Shown here one piece after another: positions 19,102 to 28,059 of a stretch of DNA of 64,000 nucleotides; within the stretch, counting starts at the first letter, position 1; every line of letters begins with the position of its first letter. The stretch comes from an uncultured virus (IMG/VR IMGVR_UViG_3300028833_000148) (lineage: Duplodnaviria > Heunggongvirae > Uroviricota > Caudoviricetes). The position numbers and the translations under genes were made by a program. The stretch spans positions 1 to 64,000 of IMG/VR virus record IMGVR_UViG_3300028833_000148, one strand, 5' to 3'. The notes under the pieces were generated by a model that did no database searches, was not told where the DNA came from, and saw only the letters and a list, made by a program, of their open reading frames with translations.

Positions 19102-19890
19102 TTATTCCGTTTTATCAATGTGAGAATTTTGTATTTCCTTATCTATCTCTCTTAGAACGCCATCATCGTCAAGAATAAAAGCTTTTCTACAATCTAAACA
19201 AGCCCAGTTATCTGTTATAATTGGCTTTTCGTTTTGCTGTGTATGCCCAAATATTTGATAATCATATCCTTCAACAATAGCGTCAGTATTGGAGATTATA
19301 TCATTCTCATCTGATGTATTCATATCTATTTTCTCTCTAACGTCTGACCATACGATGCTACCACTTTTTTCTCCAAACCAAGACCTATAACTAGAAACAT
19401 CTGTTAATATTCTAATTCCAAGTGGGATTTCCAACAAATGATTTATGCTTGCGACTGTTATATCACCTATGACATTTTCATTCCTTTTAATCCACGAATT
19501 CATAAGCCCAGAGTGAGAAAACAAGAATTTCTTTCCATTGATGTCTTCTTCATGCGCAAGTTTAAATAGGCTTCTGTGCGTTTTGAAGTCATTTGCAATA
19601 TGCCAAGCATTGCTTGAGTCATATCTTGACCTAGTATGAAATTCTTTTGAGAAATATTGCATATCATGGTTTCCTAGCAATAGAACAACTTTATCTTTAT
19701 TGTTTATTTTATAAGCAATTATTTCTTCAAAGTTGTTTATTGCCTCTTTCCTTGTTATGCCCTCATATTCGTATGGGTCTAGGTAATCGCCTAAGAATAT
19801 AATTTTTGCTACTTTATTTTCAAATTCTGAAACCGCATTCTTCCAAAATGACCTCCCATGAACATCTGGTATTACCAATATATTTTTCAT
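19102..19890 (-). CDS. calcineurin-like metallophosphoesterase
   Basis: DVHG, GDYLD, GNHD, SH, GHTQ motifs. Confidence 0.9.
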   Translation of the reverse strand: MKNILVIPDVHGRSFWKNAVSEFENKVAKIIFLGDYLDPYEYEGITRKEAINNFEEIIAYKINNKDKVVLLLGNHDMQYFSKEFHTRSRYDSSNAWHIANDFKTHRSLFKLAHEEDINGKKFLFSHSGLMNSWIKRNENVIGDITVASINHLLEIPLGIRILTDVSSYRSWFGEKSGSIVWSDVREKIDMNTSDENDIISNTDAIVEGYDYQIFGHTQQNEKPIITDNWACLDCRKAFILDDDGVLREIDKEIQNSHIDKTE

Positions 19891-20332
19891 CGTTTTCCTT
19901 CTTATCTACTAAAATTATTGAATCAGTTATTTTATTTTCTTGGCAATAAAGATACCAAAATTCTTTTAAGTACATAATCCTAGCATAAGATATACAGTAT
20001 GGTATAAAAACGCCTTTATCATTATATGCGAAAGGGAACAGAAGAAAGGTATCTTCAAACCAGTTGTATACACATTTTCCACGAAAACATCTGTGACTAT
20101 TGTCAGAATATGATTGGTAATGGACGATTCTTTTCAAAAAATATTTTTTATAATATTGTGAGAAACTTCCATATTTTTGATTCAAATAGTAGTGAAAAGT
20201 TCCAATAAATTTAAATTCTCTCAAGAACTTCATAAACACTTCAAAAGCTTCAAGTGGAGCTATATCATAGTTTCCAATCATTCTGCGGTAATGCATGTCA
20301 TAATGTACAAAACGTGAGTCAATACTTGCCAT
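19820..20332 (-). CDS. hypothetical protein (F..FL family)
   Basis: EVFMKFLREFK. Confidence 0.55.
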   Translation of the reverse strand: MASIDSRFVHYDMHYRRMIGNYDIAPLEAFEVFMKFLREFKFIGTFHYYLNQKYGSFSQYYKKYFLKRIVHYQSYSDNSHRCFRGKCVYNWFEDTFLLFPFAYNDKGVFIPYCISYARIMYLKEFWYLYCQENKITDSIILVDKKENDEKYIGNTRCSWEVILEECGFRI

Positions 20333-20334
20333 TT

Positions 20335-20745
20335 TTAATTTATTAAAATTGACATATCATAACCTTTATCACACAAATAGAGCCAGAAGAGTTCTTTGTA
20401 TAGTTTTATTTTTGATATGTTATAGTCTTTTCCATTATCATATATTTCCACCCATCTGAAAAAAACAACATCAATTGTCTCTTTATACAATTTATTATAA
20501 TGTAGTAATTCATAATAAAATTCTCTTAAAATGGAACGTTTACAGTTTCTATCTTTGCGTGTTTTCATCAAATAAACTGGATTTCCCCAAAAATAATAGA
20601 ATTTATCAATTTGTGGAAACTCTTTATCTATGTTTTTAGCAAAAAAATACCTATAACTTCCATATATGTTCATCATTTTAAGGAATTTTACAAACTCTAG
20701 GCATATGGTTTGTCTTCTAACTCTTTTTGCGTGAATTTTTTTCAT
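20335..20745 (-). CDS. hypothetical protein (F..FLK family)
   Basis: LEFVKFLKMM. Confidence 0.55.
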   Translation of the reverse strand: MKKIHAKRVRRQTICLEFVKFLKMMNIYGSYRYFFAKNIDKEFPQIDKFYYFWGNPVYLMKTRKDRNCKRSILREFYYELLHYNKLYKETIDVVFFRWVEIYDNGKDYNISKIKLYKELFWLYLCDKGYDMSILIN

Positions 20746-21370
20746 TTACTATACTTACTTTTCAATAGTTGCTTGCCTATTTTCTCTTCTACTTCATGCC
20801 AAGAAATTGGAGTATAATCATTGTTATCGACCCCTACATCATACTGTGTCGGGAATAGATATTTTAATCTAACTAGGTCTTCTCCTTTTTTTCCAGGACC
20901 AGAGTGTACGTGACCAAAAAGTTGATATACTAAACCTTTGGGGTCACGGTATGTTCCACCATAACAAAGAAAAGGTACATGATTAAGGTAGATTTTTCTA
21001 CCTTCAATTTCTATTAATAGTTGCTGGGTTGTGAACTCAAACAGTTCATTATATTGCGCTTCCGACTGACAACCATTTTTAAAATCATGATTTCCTTTAA
21101 TCAGTATGATTTTACCGTTCAATTGCTCTCTTATTTTTTTATATTCTTGATACCCACCCCATCCAAAATCTCCAAGGTGAAATACTAACCCATCAGTAGG
21201 AACTTTATTATTCCAATTTTCGATTAGTGCTCTATCCATTTCCTCTGCGTCTTTGAAAGGACGGTCACAAAATTTAATTATGTTTGAATGTCCGAAATGA
21301 GTACCTAGGTGTCGGAGGTGAAAAACACCTCCGACCCATCATTATATTTAAAGTCTACCTTTTTTGACAT
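20742..21370 (-). CDS. calcineurin-like metallophosphoesterase interrupted by an 8-nt stop-containing element
   Basis: 21370-21308 encodes MSKKVDFKYNDGSEVFFTSDT then TAG; the other frame resumes (T)HFGHSNIIKFCDRPF..HLGD..GNHD..NH..GHVH..DVGVD. Confidence 0.85.
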
Positions 21371-21391
21371 AATTTTTATTATTATTTATTT

Positions 21392-22252
21392 TTATAGATA
21401 TATTTTTAAATCTTCAATTATAAGTGGATGGTCTACCATTTCAACGCTCCCATCAATATATTTTATAAATACGCTTTTATCTTCATTCATAGTAATTGAA
21501 TCTACGCTGTTTTTCTCAATGTCTTTTGGACAGTAATCAAATAATGACGGAGATAACATCAATACGCTCAAAACAGATAAAGAAGCTATGTCTTCATTAA
21601 GTCCATTTTCCAATATTTTATTAAATTCCTCATCCCTAATTGCGCAAGAGCGTGTATAGTTATCCATGAATATTTCCCATTTGAAAAGCAATTCATTCAA
21701 TGTTGAATTGTTAACAATGACCTTGTTCATACAATCTTTCCAAGTGATTGACGTTTCTGACTCGTGATTAGATACATTATCTAAAGTTGTTCGTGTTACG
21801 AACCAGCAATCCCCACCTAGTTCTTCAATCATTCGTTTTTCATTTGGGAACCTGACATCATCTATGACATAATTAACATCATTTTTAATCATTTCTCTGA
21901 TTCTATTGACATGCCAATCAGAATTATATTTGCGTATATAATCAGTTCCTATGAATTGTAGCATATCTCTCACGGTGTGCAGATATTTTCCATCGCATAT
22001 CTCAGTTGTTGTTTCAATTGGTATGTTTGTTTCTTCAGATAAAATTTCACAAACGTCTTTACCAATTGTAATTTCTATTGGTATGTTTTCATTTTTTGCT
22101 CGATTTAATTCATCAATTGAAATATCTAGTATATCAGCACAAAGTTGTTTTAGTGGAAGAGCAAAAGATAAACGTTGATACCCATATTTCTCGCACACTT
22201 CAGATAAAACAGTTTTTCCACTCCTACATCTTCCAGCGAAACCAATTATCAT
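21392..22252 (-). CDS. deoxynucleoside monophosphate kinase
   Basis: IIGFAGRCRSGK, SFA.PLK, R..LQ.IGTD..R, DDVRFPNE, HESE motifs (T4 gp1-like). Confidence 0.85.
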   Translation of the reverse strand: MIIGFAGRCRSGKTVLSEVCEKYGYQRLSFALPLKQLCADILDISIDELNRAKNENIPIEITIGKDVCEILSEETNIPIETTTEICDGKYLHTVRDMLQFIGTDYIRKYNSDWHVNRIREMIKNDVNYVIDDVRFPNEKRMIEELGGDCWFVTRTTLDNVSNHESETSITWKDCMNKVIVNNSTLNELLFKWEIFMDNYTRSCAIRDEEFNKILENGLNEDIASLSVLSVLMLSPSLFDYCPKDIEKNSVDSITMNEDKSVFIKYIDGSVEMVDHPLIIEDLKIYL

Positions 22253-22253
22253 A

Positions 22254-22556
22254 TTATCTATCTTTTAACGCCTCATTTATTATATTTGTTAACTCATTTA
22301 ATGGAATGTTACCCATTACTTTGTATATAAGTTCATCGTTTTCATCTAATAGAATCGTTGTTGGTACTGACCTAATCTGATATTTTTCTGCTAGTACATC
22401 ACCATTTTCATCATTTTCAATATCAATTTCTTTAAATTCAATATCTTTAAACTCATCCATATCTTTAACTTTATGGAATGTTGGCGCATATGCCCTACAA
22501 GGACCACACCAAGTGGTGCTCATTTTGATTATTTTTTTTACTTTGTTTGTGTTCAT
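22254..22556 (-). CDS. thioredoxin
   Basis: WCGPC active site and SVPT cis-Pro loop. Confidence 0.9.
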   Translation of the reverse strand: MNTNKVKKIIKMSTTWCGPCRAYAPTFHKVKDMDEFKDIEFKEIDIENDENGDVLAEKYQIRSVPTTILLDENDELIYKVMGNIPLNELTNIINEALKDR

Positions 22557-22559
22557 GAT

Positions 22560-24344
22560 TTATTTTTTAGATTTTTTAGTTTTTAGTAATTCAGAAAAAG
22601 AGTTTATCTTTCTTCTTCCTACCGAATTCATATTAATTGTTGCACTAGTAAATATGTTTTTATCTATTTTTTTCGCATTACTAACTATCGCTCTAGCGTT
22701 TGTTTCATTAATAATAATCCTAGTTGATTTATTCAAAACTTTATTCACTTGTATTTCGATTCTATTAAGCACCGCAATACTGTTTGGGTTTGATGTATTA
22801 AATTTTTCAAAATCTTTCTCATCTATGAAACCAAGTGTTTTTTTTGCTCTAGTATATGCAACATACATTAGATTGTACTCTTGCTTAATTTCCCAGTCTT
22901 TTTTCGCAGATTTGCTAGGCATTAAAGACTCACAAGCTATGTATACGTTCTCTGCTTCAAGACCTTTTGCCTTATGGATTGTTGACAATGAAATTCCACT
23001 TTTTTTATCTCTCTTGGGAAATATTTCATCAATCTTGGCTATAATTTCCTCTGACGTGTTAATCCCTTCAGATAAAATTTCAAGCGCATTTATCATATCT
23101 AGTTTGTTTTGTATTTGTGGAGAATTAATTGCTGTTTCAGCATCAATGCCAAATTTCTCCATTAATTTATTTCTAGATGTGAATAAATCGTCATAAAGTC
23201 TAACAAACACGCCATCTTTTTGGCAATCGGCATTTAGTTCATCTTGTTTTGTGTTTTTGACAAGTAATTTAAGATTCGAACCGATTTCTTTGCCTCTAAT
23301 GAAACACTTTTTCCCTAATTTCAAAAATTCATTATATATCTGGACTAATGGTGCATTATTCCTGCACAATATCATGTCACCATCTTGGACATCTTCTAGA
23401 GACACATTTCGTAAAATCTGACCATCAATTGCGCCATCTGCTGCCTCAATATTTTTAACTATTTTGTGTGCAAAATCCACAATTTTTTTACCACAGCGAT
23501 ATGAGATACTAAGTGGCAAACAAGTCGTATTGGGCATTGATTTAAGTATCTTGAACGAGTCTGAATCTGCTCCAGCAAATGAATAAAGGCACTGTTTTTC
23601 ATCACCAACTGACATCATTCTAGTTCCCATTTTAAAACATTTTAGAACCAATTCTCTTTCGGCTTTGTTCATGTCTTGAACCTCATCAATCATTATAAAG
23701 TCATATAAGAGTCCTAGAGGCTTTAAAAACAATGCATTGGGCAACCATACCATGTCGGTATAATCAATCGTTTCTAGGGCATTTTTGCCCCATTCCATGA
23801 CATTTATTGCAATCTCTTTCTCATCTGCAATTGTATCAATATTATATCTATCTTCTATAAAATCTAAATCTTTAACTGTTTGACACAAATAGAATCTACC
23901 AAAATCAACATATTTTTTAATGTTTTCGATATACCTAAAGTATTTACCACCTTTCAAAGTATAAGTATTCAAAGAAGACAGTTCTTTCAGATTGTTTTTT
24001 ATGTATGAATCATATTTAAATGGTTCAGGAATTGCACTAACTTGTGGCAAATTTCTTTTGATAAATTGTAATCCCAATCCATGCAATGTTTTTATGTCTA
24101 TGTTATCTTTACCATTAGTTTTTTTCTTTAACTCGTTTACAATATCAGTGTTAAACGCAGTCAATAAAATTTTATCATTTGATGGTATAAAATCTAAGCA
24201 TTTAATTAATGTTGTAGATTTTCCACTACCAGCACAAGCTTCTACAACCAAGTGACCTTGCTCATGTTCTATGAATGAGAAAATTTTTTTTTGGTATTCT
24301 GACCAAATATACTGTTTATTCTCTGTTTTCTTTTTTCTTGGCAT
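22560..24344 (-). CDS. UvrD/Rep-like SF1 helicase (paralog of 6499-8055)
   Basis: ACAGSGKS, DEVQD, VGDEKQCLYSFAGAD, SYRC, STIHKAKGLE, YVAYTRA; likely start MPRKK at 24344. Confidence 0.92.
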   Translation of the reverse strand: MPRKKKTENKQYIWSEYQKKIFSFIEHEQGHLVVEACAGSGKSTTLIKCLDFIPSNDKILLTAFNTDIVNELKKKTNGKDNIDIKTLHGLGLQFIKRNLPQVSAIPEPFKYDSYIKNNLKELSSLNTYTLKGGKYFRYIENIKKYVDFGRFYLCQTVKDLDFIEDRYNIDTIADEKEIAINVMEWGKNALETIDYTDMVWLPNALFLKPLGLLYDFIMIDEVQDMNKAERELVLKCFKMGTRMMSVGDEKQCLYSFAGADSDSFKILKSMPNTTCLPLSISYRCGKKIVDFAHKIVKNIEAADGAIDGQILRNVSLEDVQDGDMILCRNNAPLVQIYNEFLKLGKKCFIRGKEIGSNLKLLVKNTKQDELNADCQKDGVFVRLYDDLFTSRNKLMEKFGIDAETAINSPQIQNKLDMINALEILSEGINTSEEIIAKIDEIFPKRDKKSGISLSTIHKAKGLEAENVYIACESLMPSKSAKKDWEIKQEYNLMYVAYTRAKKTLGFIDEKDFEKFNTSNPNSIAVLNRIEIQVNKVLNKSTRIIINETNARAIVSNAKKIDKNIFTSATINMNSVGRRKINSFSELLKTKKSKK

Positions 24345-24442
24345 TTTAACATTTTTTTGCAAATATATGTAAAAAATGTTAAAAAACAAAAAAATAGGGG
24401 TAGTATTTTTACACCACCCCTATTAATTATATAGATTTTAAT

Positions 24443-25297
24443 TTACTCAGTGTCCTCACCGAGAATTTTTTTAACCCAATCACGCAAATGTGGATTGTTT
24501 TTAAAAGTGGTCTTCATACGACCAATGAATTCATTCACCTTTGGGTCATTTTCAAGAGCCTTCATTCTCTTGAACTCAGCCATTCTCTTGTTCTTCTCGT
24601 CAAGGAATTTAACCAAATCGTTTTTACTTGCAGTGGCAAGATTAATCTCAGAATCCCAAAGTCTTTCTCTGATGATTTTTACAAGTTCATCAGTTCCCAT
24701 CGAAGCAAATGGAGACGATGGGGTCTCGTGACGAGGTGCTTCCTCTTGTCTTGGCTGACGAGGTGCAAAACGACCATGTTCATCACGTGGCTGTCTTACC
24801 TCATGGTTAGGCTCTTCAACATTCCGATTCGGTTTGTTAAACCTTCTCTCAAATACCTCACGAAGACTTTCTGGCATCGGTGGAATAAAATCGTTTTCTC
24901 GCTCTTCCCCAATTGGACGAGTAAAATTAGGTCTTGTGAACTGAGGATGATTCATCTGAGGTCTTGGACGCTCAAAGATGTTTGGACGTGGCAATGGACG
25001 CTCAAATTCCTCCTCGCTAGGAAGATTCTCGTAATTACCAATTGGTGTTTCGTCAATAGGTTTAATCTCTAAAGCGTTTCCAGTTGCAATAAGCAGTTTG
25101 GCGAATGTTGAGAGTGAAATCTCTCCATTACCCTCAAGAATTTGATTCAGCTCTCCGTCAGAAATTGCTAGGACGTAAGCAAGTTCTCTCTCGCTGGCAT
25201 CAACCTCTCTCATAAAAGAGATAACCTTGTTTCTAATGTCATTTTTAGCCATGCGAGTCCACTCGCTTGCTAATCTTTGTAACTGTTCTCTATTCAT
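24443..25297 (-). CDS. XRE-like HTH protein with a disordered Pro/Arg-rich linker
   Basis: SERELAYVLAISDGELNQILEG...ISLSTFAKL; promoter TATCTTTG 25326-25333. Confidence 0.6.
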   Translation of the reverse strand: MNREQLQRLASEWTRMAKNDIRNKVISFMREVDASERELAYVLAISDGELNQILEGNGEISLSTFAKLLIATGNALEIKPIDETPIGNYENLPSEEEFERPLPRPNIFERPRPQMNHPQFTRPNFTRPIGEERENDFIPPMPESLREVFERRFNKPNRNVEEPNHEVRQPRDEHGRFAPRQPRQEEAPRHETPSSPFASMGTDELVKIIRERLWDSEINLATASKNDLVKFLDEKNKRMAEFKRMKALENDPKVNEFIGRMKTTFKNNPHLRDWVKKILGEDTE

Positions 25298-25399
25298 TTT
25301 CTAAAATTTAAAATAATTTTCAATGCAAAGATATAAAAAAAATGTTATAAAACCAAATATTTTAACGTTTTTTAGCATTAACTAGTCTCATCATATTTA

Positions 25400-26677
25400 T
25401 TAAAGCAACCCATACGCTTTTTTTCTAATATCAATTAACAAGTTATTTACCAAATCAACATCAATGCTTTCTCTAATCGTAGAGTTTTTGATGGCTTCAT
25501 CGAGTTTTAGTTTGTCTTCGTCAACAATAGCCATAAGTTCGTCATACTCATACTTATGGTTGCGAATGTTCATCAAAAACTCTTTATCCCAAGTTCTTTC
25601 AAGATTAATTCCTTTACCTTCAGCGATTTCTTGACCCATATGCATAAGTCTTACACAATGCATCATGTTTTTGGAATCATAGTTTTTGTCTAGATTCGAT
25701 TCGTAGCGTTTTGGATTACGGAATTTTTCCCAGTCTTTATATTCTTTATATTTTTTGCAATGGTCTTTGAAACCACTCTCGTTATATACCATCCAACAGA
25801 TAGGCGTTTCTCCCTTTGACACAGAAGACCCTCTCATGTCCGTTGAATTATCAAGGCACATTCCACGATAATGGATTACCTCTTGGTTTTTATCATACCA
25901 CTCTTTAAGTTCTTTTTTTGTATTGATGCCATAAAAGTTTTTGATGAACTTGGCGAATTTCTGCGTCTCTTCATCCACACGTCCATAACCAAACCATCCA
26001 AAAAACAGCAAACCAAAAGGATTTGCGCCAAAAGCGGCCAACTCCAAGTCCTCATATTTGATTAAATTATGGTGGATATGAGCACCCCAATCATAATATA
26101 CACCATATGTATCATGCATATTCGGAATATGCACTAGACCACAGAAATTTTTATCCAAACCTCTATTATTCAGCCAATTAGATATTTTAGTGCTTCCTTG
26201 GTTATAGAAGGTATACGCAAAATCAAAAGGAGTGAGTCTTTGCGTTACTGGGTTAACAATTTTTTTATTCAATCCTCTTGCTTTATGGATTTGTTCAATA
26301 GCGTATTGAACGAATGGCTTAAAACATTTTTTAGTGATGAATTGGTCTCTATTCTCAAACAGAGGCATAATAAGTTCACTAGGTGGTGTTATGATTTTAT
26401 TCTCTGGAACAAACAATGCCTCTAAAACCGTTGGGTTGGATTTGAGAATTAAGTTAGCAAAATTGCCTATTTCATACCACGTGGTATCGTGACGTTCATC
26501 AGAAATTTGGTCTTGATAATCCGCACCTAACCCCATGAACGCCTCTTTAGTTGCAATATAAAGTCCGCTTGTATCTACGTCCGAATCTTCATTATTTAGT
26601 CCATATAAATGTGAACCCCTGACATATTCGTAAAGTAGTCTTTTATCGTCAGTAATTGTTTGGAAAGTATCTTTCAT
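25400..26677 (-). CDS. Pol-beta superfamily nucleotidyltransferase (RlaP-like)
   Basis: RGSHLYGL...SDVD, SNP..LE.LF, YDSKNMMH..RL motifs. Confidence 0.8.
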   Translation of the reverse strand: MKDTFQTITDDKRLLYEYVRGSHLYGLNNEDSDVDTSGLYIATKEAFMGLGADYQDQISDERHDTTWYEIGNFANLILKSNPTVLEALFVPENKIITPPSELIMPLFENRDQFITKKCFKPFVQYAIEQIHKARGLNKKIVNPVTQRLTPFDFAYTFYNQGSTKISNWLNNRGLDKNFCGLVHIPNMHDTYGVYYDWGAHIHHNLIKYEDLELAAFGANPFGLLFFGWFGYGRVDEETQKFAKFIKNFYGINTKKELKEWYDKNQEVIHYRGMCLDNSTDMRGSSVSKGETPICWMVYNESGFKDHCKKYKEYKDWEKFRNPKRYESNLDKNYDSKNMMHCVRLMHMGQEIAEGKGINLERTWDKEFLMNIRNHKYEYDELMAIVDEDKLKLDEAIKNSTIRESIDVDLVNNLLIDIRKKAYGLL

Positions 26678-26679
26678 AT

Positions 26680-27150
26680 TTATTTTATTTGTCTATTTTT
26701 AAAAATTTTTCTGTCGTTTATAATTCTACTATCATGTTCCTTTAAGAACTCCCTAGTTTCTTCATCGGAGAATTTAATTATATTTTCCCTCAAATACTCA
26801 GCATCTTCGCTTAAGGAACAATATGTAGATACTGCTTCTTCCAATGCATCTTTTTTGTTTGTATAATACCTCCAAAAATGTATGTCATCCGATGAAAACC
26901 TATTTCCATTCAGTTCTACATCTGAAAGCCAAGTTTCAATTATCTTAGTGTAGCCGTTGTTAGTATTTGTTAATAAAATTTTATAATTTTTACTAATAGC
27001 ACTAGGAAATAAATGACCCAATATATGTTTAATAGGTACAATTAGACATTCATATTCCCTAATTAAACTTTTCTTATTTATTAGCCCATATACTTTATTG
27101 GTTTTTCCTTTTTTGCTATCTTCAATTATGTTCTTAATCGTTTTTTCCAT
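26680..27150 (-). CDS. hypothetical protein
   Basis: first gene after promoter TATATTTG 27176-27183. Confidence 0.6.
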   Translation of the reverse strand: MEKTIKNIIEDSKKGKTNKVYGLINKKSLIREYECLIVPIKHILGHLFPSAISKNYKILLTNTNNGYTKIIETWLSDVELNGNRFSSDDIHFWRYYTNKKDALEEAVSTYCSLSEDAEYLRENIIKFSDEETREFLKEHDSRIINDRKIFKNRQIK

Positions 27151-27231
27151 ATATATAGTGTTTTATCGTTTGATGCAAATATACGAAAAAAAATTGGAAT
27201 AGCCAAATAACTACTCCAATTTTAATATTAT

Positions 27232-28059
27232 TTAACCTTCTTCCTCAAAATGTATTCTAGATTCTAGGTATTCCCTACCTTCACCTCTTAGTATTGGCAT
27301 TTCCTCATCAACTACCCAATCACCTTCACCATTCTTAATAATTGCAGTACCCCTCTTCTCTGGAATTGACAAGTTATTCCAATTGATACTGTATTTCTCC
27401 ATCATCATATCTTGCATTTGGCTACTGTTTTTACCATGCAATTCTTTTGGTGAAAAATATGCTTGGGCTAATGAAGATACAGAGTTTCTTGTTGCGTCAT
27501 TCTGTCTCCAAAGTACGCAATTTGTGACTTCTCCCTCTGGAACGTTGAACACTCTAGCATCGAACAACCCGCCATTTTTGATTCCCCTCATATATGCTTT
27601 CAGAACCCTATCAACTTGGCATGCTACATCACCAAGATTCTTTTTATCTTTTGCATTTGAAGCATGTTCTTTAATAAAATCTCCACAAATTCTAGCGAAA
27701 ATTCTATTAAAATATAACGTACACATAGATGCTGCCACTGAGCACATTTTTTCAACACTATAGTCAAACCATGCGTCAGTATCAAGTGCATTATAATCAA
27801 CTAACACAAGAGTAATCTCGTCAGATTGCGTGTAGCCGAATACACATCCTTGGATGTTTCTGCAAAGCTCTAATGTTGTTTCTTGCATTACACGCATAAG
27901 TCTTGCATCAAAAGGTTTCACAAAACCTCTTGTAAATGTGTGGAATGCTTTACCATCTAGCCTAATAATTACTGGTGTTCTTCTCAATAAATATGTCTTG
28001 GCTCTGTTCTCATAGTTATTTTTCATTCTATCTCCAAGACCGTCTCTTTTATTACCCAT
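27232..28059 (-). CDS. tRNA(His) guanylyltransferase Thg1-like protein
   Basis: RLDGKAFHTFT, YTQSDEI, FDARV, WRQ.DA.RNS motifs. Confidence 0.92.
   Translation of the reverse strand: MGNKRDGLGDRMKNNYENRAKTYLLRRTPVIIRLDGKAFHTFTRGFVKPFDARLMRVMQETTLELCRNIQGCVFGYTQSDEITLVLVDYNALDTDAWFDYSVEKMCSVAASMCTLYFNRIFARICGDFIKEHASNAKDKKNLGDVACQVDRVLKAYMRGIKNGGLFDARVFNVPEGEVTNCVLWRQNDATRNSVSSLAQAYFSPKELHGKNSSQMQDMMMEKYSINWNNLSIPEKRGTAIIKNGEGDWVVDEEMPILRGEGREYLESRIHFEEEG

Follow-up and report, generated by a model that had tools for sequence, protein, structure and literature searches.

A putative programmed short ribosomal bypass of mobile-element origin in a phage metallophosphoesterase gene

Bypassing systems and the interrupted phosphoesterase locus

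The described system closest to the element reported here is that of T4 gene 60/MobA. As set out in portions of the published account, a free-standing homing endonuclease is there combined with a replacement N-terminal segment and a bypass cassette at a metal-binding motif, the take-off and landing codons match or are related by wobble, a stop follows the take-off codon, the position of take-off varies by one codon, and endonuclease families interchange and are lost and the bypass stays (bioRxiv 2022.08.31.505936). The same portions describe the MobA element as a replacement segment with a bypass insert that blocks nicking (bioRxiv 2022.08.31.505936). The combination of features given in the first of these descriptions recurs, at the level of sequence, in the phage genes examined here. 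The host gene differs, however, being a metallophosphoesterase here and the topoisomerase II large subunit with CTE/NTE tails there, and the skip covers 5–14 nt here as against 20–50 nt. Our endonucleases belong to the LAGLIDADG, HNH and GIY-YIG families, and the likeness to MobA is one of layout, the cassette here being much smaller. In comparison with gene 60, we found one hairpin lying wholly 5' of the take-off codon and no A-site take-off stem-loop inside the gap, saw by eye neither a conserved nascent peptide nor a mini-SD, and noted that all three stops are common and that a third of the gaps are in frame. The element would work like gene 60/MobA yet is outside that family on account of its other gene, its much shorter gap and its lack of a gap stem-loop.

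Among other systems, the byps of Magnusiomyces mitochondria are scattered over many genes and use an unused codon, whereas here a single site in one gene family is affected. Both comprise short inserts rendered harmless, here putatively, through hopping, as part of one report describes for the byps (PMC5009743). The nearest short case is the terminase bypass of Streptomyces phage Hau3, which has a skip of 7–10 nt and a proposed 5' stem-loop; in the relevant part of its report the trigger is a hungry UUA codon, a developmental sensor is proposed, and 3 of 100 genes are concerned (PMC10732093), whereas here we find a stop codon, 74 contexts and a link to endonucleases. A synthetic E. coli stop-hop, in which a stop sits between codons that match and 9 nt give one residue, has the form of the 22 alleles with six-nt skips described below (PMC5009743), but these are natural, conserved and hairpin-bearing. 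According to part of that source, no natural in-frame stop-hop was known in 2016 and counterparts of gene 60 had long been presumed (PMC5009743). Our search of open-access and bioRxiv main text found no published description of the present element.

The window, by which we mean the whole 64,000-nt stretch analyzed, comes from a 73-kb virus contig whose record is 25% complete; four relative genomes are represented by records of 273–413 kb. On the minus strand of the window, the D-x-H motif of a phosphoesterase gene is split by the stretch ACC-TAG-GT-ACT, preceded by a hairpin. The first reading frame, ORF1 (21308..21370; MSKKVDFKYNDGSEVFFTSDT), has 21 codons, starts at the ATG at 21370-21368 and ends in FFTSDT. 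Judging from its sequence, it probably represents the cassette-borne 5' end of the phosphoesterase gene and would supply the Asp of D-x-H. Its last codon, ACC (Thr, 21308..21310), is the putative take-off codon and would occupy the P site, as sequence and codon covariation suggest; the in-frame stop TAG (21305..21307) would cause a pause in the A site. A 2-nt spacer, GT (21303..21304), completes the bases lying before the putative landing codon ACT (Thr, 21300..21302), the skip being 8 nt in all. By wobble rules ACC and ACT are both readable by one tRNA-Thr with the anticodon GGU. Decoding would resume at CAT, the His of D-x-H (21299-21297), the first of 185 codons of ORF2 (20742..21299; PF00149, PF12850), which stops at 20744-20742. 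ORF2 opens HFGHSNII and bears the motifs GD, GNHD, H and GHxH, and we found no start codon between its last in-frame stop and the resume His.

Removal of the window gap rejoins the two frames and restores D-x-H together with a conserved protein of 21 + 185 = 206 amino acids, equal in length to its uninterrupted relative L001 (98% identical). The preliminary description of this DNA had proposed this same anatomy, and the coordinates and the length shared with L001 bear it out. It had also held that neither read-through nor a -1 shift can restore the D-x-H spacing, and this too proved correct: read-through of the TAG meets a TAA 8 codons on, and a -1 shift gives ...HLRHLGTHFGH, from which the Asp is missing. 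The product is a calcineurin-like metallophosphoesterase (PF00149/PF12850; PHROG 547 and PDB 1xm7 via L001). D-x-H, GD, GNH, H and GHxH are motifs with established roles in such enzymes; the window gene would have D-x-H only after the hop and keeps the others intact. Upstream of ORF1 lies a deoxynucleotide monophosphate (dNMP) kinase gene (21392..22252, minus strand), and more widely (19102-28059) the gene is surrounded by a second metallophosphoesterase, the dNMP kinase, a thioredoxin, a UvrD-like helicase, an RlaP nucleotidyltransferase and Thg1. With these neighbors and part of a published account (PMC7824862), a role of the phosphoesterase in nucleotide or RNA-end processing is plausible.

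The identical 11-nt stretch ACC-TAG-GT-ACT occurs in 7 other distinct contexts (L551, L331, L335, L340, L351, L361 and L379), which argues that the window gap is not an assembly error. A strict filter, tuned on the window element (anchored stem of at least 8 bp, at most -14 kcal/mol, a stop, a matched triplet 5–14 nt on and at least 60 open codons), passed one of the 8,292 stop triplets of the phage's own genome, namely the window site. We consider it probable, from comparison of the sequences, that the locus carries a programmed short ribosomal bypass of mobile-element origin which hides an endonuclease target.

Interrupted alleles and their homing endonucleases

A first protein search returned 42 loci, 6 of them interrupted at the window's position. 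Pattern scans and a second protein search brought the collection to 74 distinct, HMM-confirmed interrupted contexts in phage and metagenome contigs, which share ancestry and hence are not independent samples; by protein identity they fall into 56 clusters at 85% and 36 at 70%. We left out L094, two duplicate L194/L197 rows and the false pattern hits L185, L193, L396, L435 and L459, and kept L423 separate. After the take-off codon we found TAG in 38 contexts, TAA in 25 and TGA in 11, most contexts having come from patterns that demanded a stop and one pattern having also demanded TCCGAC. For this reading of the stop we also draw on two stop-unbiased scans, which gave 101 loci, 42 of them homologous, reducing to 38 distinct contexts: 31 had a stop after the usual take-off codon and 3 after a His one codon later, where a His take-off is paired with a His landing; 3 were uninterrupted and one (L423) was stopless. 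A stop thus stood at take-off in 34 of the 35 truly interrupted contexts from these scans. No gaps of 1–4 nt were seen in the 38 homologous stop-unbiased contexts. In L423 the motif holds, near position 812, an 11-nt insert resembling a duplication; the hairpin is weak, no stop follows the take-off codon, and the allele could be either a pseudogene or a sense-codon hop. Two further observations were made in passing. About 40 loci (L409-L485) hold a recurrent sequence in viral contigs that fits the relaxed pattern and is not phosphoesterase, and the plain allele at L006:3400-3660 has ~100 extra nt near its 3' end, apparently a C-terminal segment duplicated through recombination.

Beyond this locus, cross-genome tblastn of the four genomes detected no other hop genes, the positive control being recovered in 3/3 genomes, and motif scans of the same four genomes gave none that convinced, the strict scan adding two weak extras in G003 and G004. 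Of 15 pattern hits in prokaryote genomes, none proved to be an interrupted homolog (the HMM rejected 11, and 4 with TGG were removed before it), an absence that carries little weight because the scan covered just the AAT-ATN half of the pattern. No cultured phage with the gap was found in 6 regions examined, 4 of them at base level. We rejected genome-wide stop reassignment (code 15 or 4): opening TAG or TGA raises ORF coverage slightly and similarly in the four genomes, whose long ORFs end in all three stops, and code 11 fits. A CUA-anticodon (amber-suppressor-like) tRNA is present in three related jumbo-phage records (L492:16577-16653 in G001, and in G003 and G004).

With 13 of the 14 endonuclease queries taken from interrupted loci, we found an endonuclease-like gene just upstream of 24 of the 59 assessable interrupted alleles as against 3 of 60 plain ones; by clusters the figures were 21/46 versus 3/30 (p 0.001) and 16/26 versus 1/17, and within the protein-search subset 6/10 versus 3/58. 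As a control, Pfam analysis of 49 further upstream ORFs of plain loci yielded one endonuclease. The genes are of the three families named above, 19 of the 24 being firm, 2 being short HNH fragments and 3 belonging to a family without a Pfam nuclease hit. The upstream ORFs of L163, L167 and L194 form an uncharacterised NUMOD3-bearing family with an HNH-like C-terminus in the endonucleases' position, for which the Atlas pointed solely to HNH clusters. Of the 24 endonuclease-like genes, 12 are preceded by a dead remnant of the original 5' end that stops at F-T-S-D(-x-H). The L028 remnant matches plain L027 at 106 of 108 positions, and identity returns ~120 nt beyond the gap.

The linked endonuclease and replacement segment are thus found in the window's relatives but not in the window itself. 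A LAGLIDADG gene lies between the dNMP kinase gene and the cassette in L002, L009, L550 (=L100) and L330 and is absent from the window; we found no homolog of the L002 endonuclease in the window's own 73-kb contig, a quarter-complete record. One allele, L358, is the same as L009 save for the loss of 889 nt of endonuclease and may serve as a model of the window's state, in which the cassette was kept and the endonuclease lost. The first 60 nt of the window gene match endonuclease-bearing L002 at 58 positions and plain L001 at 37, and its body matches L001 (97–98% identical) at 333 of 340 positions and L002 at 268 of 340; a 5' end like that of L002 on a body like that of L001 indicates that the 5' cassette moves as a unit. 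A quick tree built from the C-terminal part (61 interrupted, 92 plain and 1 other) requires 29 changes of the interrupted/plain label, at least 11 of them forced by well-supported branches, and near-identical phages may differ, some carrying plain and others interrupted alleles. Uninterrupted genes with an endonuclease upstream also exist (L004, L005 and L554, and the cultured phages 16Q and Karp, with an HNH gene). In L005 and L554 the site is recoded to F-V/I-S-D, perhaps as another means of escape. At L002:2060-2995 the LAGLIDADG ORF continues in frame into the N-terminus of the phosphoesterase and closes at the TAG of the hop; a hop at this locus could thus yield an endonuclease-phosphoesterase fusion as well.

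These data bear on what the hop is for. It could be real but retained mainly for regulation, with release factor, suppressor tRNA and hopping competing to set the level of the enzyme, and the preliminary description had indeed called the element a switch controlling the enzyme. That the cassette persists in 35 of 59 interrupted alleles, the window among them, which have no upstream endonuclease would be compatible with this, as would the CUA-anticodon tRNA in each of three related jumbo genomes. However, all three stops are used, the CUA tRNA also occurs in the uninterrupted relative G004, plain alleles exist in near-identical phages and the cassette maps to the endonuclease insertion site. 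We therefore found no support here for a switch; since the element accompanies homing endonuclease genes and occupies the place where they insert, protective-insertion repair is the better-supported purpose, and a mainly regulatory role appears unlikely.

Codons, hairpin and downstream reading frame

Skip lengths in the 74 contexts were 5 nt (22), 6 (22), 7 (3), 8 (18), 9 (1), 10 (4), 11 (1), 12 (1) and 14 (2). The gap shifts the frame one way in 43 contexts and the other way in 7, and is in frame in 24, and hence a single mechanism must serve every frame. Take-off and landing codons agree in their first two bases in 68 of the 74 contexts and are fully identical in 29, the matched pairs spanning Thr, Leu, Ile, Gln and His. 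An ACC take-off, as in the window, is followed by an ACC or ACT landing in 29 of 30 contexts and never by ACA, a codon that makes up 27 of the 83 Thr codons at the site in plain alleles. The ACY landings, the avoidance of ACA and the modest proportion of identical pairs fit anticodon re-pairing better than a direct repeat in DNA or RNA. Six landings differ in base 1 or 2 (ACT/GCT three times, TCC/GCT, ACC/ATT and ACG/ATG), and G-U pairing could rescue five of them. Some of the amino-acid matching may be historical, since both codons descend from one conserved position, possibly by duplication. In L028, however, both take-off and landing are CTG, whereas its own dead 5' copy has TTA.

The hairpin of the window (21311..21335, minus strand) has arms at 21335-21326 and 21320-21311 and a 5-U loop, and its 3' arm ends on the base directly preceding the take-off codon. 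All 10 pairs are Watson-Crick; a 56-nt segment folds with an MFE of -22.3 kcal/mol (z -3.87), a value that none of 200 shuffles equals. An anchored stem of 8 bp or more, ending on the base that precedes take-off, was present in 56 of 69 interrupted but only 1 of 123 uninterrupted alleles, and the last 6 nt before take-off were highly paired in 68 of 69 versus 8 of 123. Mean pairing over the 69 alleles was 0.85–0.99 at positions -10 to -1 and no more than 0.56 from the take-off codon onward; in the three alleles with a His take-off, the predicted stem reaches to that later take-off. Among the 40 short-loop alleles (26 distinct), 98.5% of cells were paired, a statistic that is partly circular as these 40 rows were chosen for at least 8 of 10 pairs; three pairs were changed on both sides and G-U was common, occurring at one stem pair in 10 of the 26 distinct rows. 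Loop length ranges from 3 nt up to several tens of nt, and alleles differ in the frame in which the 5' arm is read, which indicates that selection acts on the structure. The comparison of homologs from related phages that the preliminary description had proposed thus reveals a covarying hairpin as well as take-off and landing codons that change together. One uninterrupted allele, at L035:2950-3000, carries a 10-bp anchored hairpin; it may be a revertant, as its tree sister L190 is interrupted.

Two other readings of the sequence were rejected: an internal Shine-Dalgarno signal, since the GGAGGTG of the window's 5' arm lacks conservation among arms, and a DNA palindrome reading of ACCTAGGT or of the inverted repeat, since G-U pairs occur in the stems and the sequence of the gap differs among alleles. 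Compared by eye for a nascent-peptide signal and a mini-SD, the N-termini differ in length and sequence apart from F-T-S-D, and the GGAGG of the window's 5' arm is missing from many others.

The form of the gaps also speaks to whether they are removed from the RNA, as a micro-intron cut out and resealed by RNA-repair enzymes of the phage, or passed over by RNA polymerase. Genes for RNA ligase and PNKP adjoin some alleles (L346, L186 and L376), and RlaP and Thg1 are present in the window, as such removal might lead one to expect. Against it, no junction sequence is common to the gaps apart from an in-frame stop of any of the three kinds, their flanks obey tRNA wobble rather than identity (29/74 identical), and gaps down to 5 nt lie outside the stem; we regard removal at the RNA level as very unlikely.

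Upstream of the gap, an ATG in the take-off frame was found in 72 of 74 contexts, the other 2 lying at contig edges. Downstream, 62 of 68 assessable ORFs keep their length and motifs; the six exceptions are 2 full-length GNH-C variants, 1 with a second LAGLIDADG-like insertion and 3 that have decayed (L161, L170 and L181). In L016 (= L180) a second LAGLIDADG-like ORF, recognised by eye, splits the same phosphoesterase at the GNH motif and is possibly an intron or a split gene. Of 68 pairs, 28 allowed dS to be estimated and gave dN/dS values of 0.03–0.30; the remaining 40 were saturated. On these estimates the downstream ORF is under purifying selection, a signal that recombination with plain alleles could inflate. 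An extreme form of this concern is that the insertion kills a dispensable gene whose 3' part looks conserved only through such recombination. The gene is mosaic, the label is scattered on the tree and 3 of 68 ORFs are decayed, all as a dead gene would have it. Yet clades sampled only as interrupted stay at low dN/dS (L334/L360 0.020/0.412; L178/L189 0.069/0.573), length changes among interrupted alleles are restricted to the gap and the hairpin covaries. The cassette's fresh start and F-T-S-D strand, moreover, would be useless unless joined to the rest, and a dead gene seems to us a distinctly remote prospect.

Finally, a split enzyme, in which a re-initiated ORF2 would join up with the 21-aa peptide, is scarcely credible, and so are simple read-through and a -1 frameshift. 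An ATG, GTG or TTG in the resume frame within 30 codons is present in 13 of 74 contexts, 24 of the 74 gaps are in frame and split genes made by MobE are reported. However, 61 of the 74 contexts, the window among them, have no such start, and neither read-through nor one shift could accommodate all three frame classes or leave D-x-H unaltered.

The proposed hop and its significance

The bypass reading of the preliminary description therefore has strong comparative support, from covariation of hairpin and codons, free gap length and frame, and purifying selection, from which we infer the hopping itself. In the course of events that we propose, a free-standing homing endonuclease gene would insert into the conserved F-T-S-D-x-H-F coding site, leaving a dead old 5' copy upstream and supplying a new start, N-terminus, hairpin, take-off codon, stop and a few non-coding bases. 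The small insert would break the endonuclease's own target and, to judge from its position, protect it from cleavage. In the window's lineage the endonuclease would since have gone and the cassette remained.

On the mRNA, the ribosome would stall when ACC occupies the P site and the stop the A site. The hairpin, freshly unwound and presumably with its 3' arm inside the ribosome at take-off, may refold at the mRNA exit/E site and so favor forward movement. Peptidyl-tRNA-Thr would then let go of ACC, slide 8 nt and re-pair on ACT, and decoding would restart at His. A successful hop would restore D-T-H in a 206-aa enzyme, the remaining ribosomes releasing a 21-aa peptide. Precedents for the forward push come from parts of two reports: a refolding hairpin upstream, next to the E site, stimulates forward shifting of 70S ribosomes (PMC6321510), and pairing of the exiting mRNA has been proposed as the forward driver in gene 60 (bioRxiv 2024.12.09.627546).

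Natural bypassing is known from very few systems, and the present alleles add 74 natural variants of a ~35-nt cassette, 22 of which have the form of a natural in-frame stop-hop. They provide a natural series in gap length, stop, codon pair and stem, which makes the forward-pushing model of exiting-mRNA pairing directly testable. They would also constitute a second case, independent of the first, in which bypassing is tied to homing endonucleases, and a class of genes that get mis-called as truncated. On balance we favor the broader view that minimal hops of this kind (hairpin, codon, stop and matching codon, with a gap of 5–14 nt) are widespread, evolved independently, include natural in-frame stop-hops and have been used repeatedly by unrelated endonucleases (LAGLIDADG, HNH and GIY-YIG) to make a target in a phage gene uncuttable. 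If so, bypassing would be a general and easily evolved means of self-protection for mobile elements, and not an oddity of T4.
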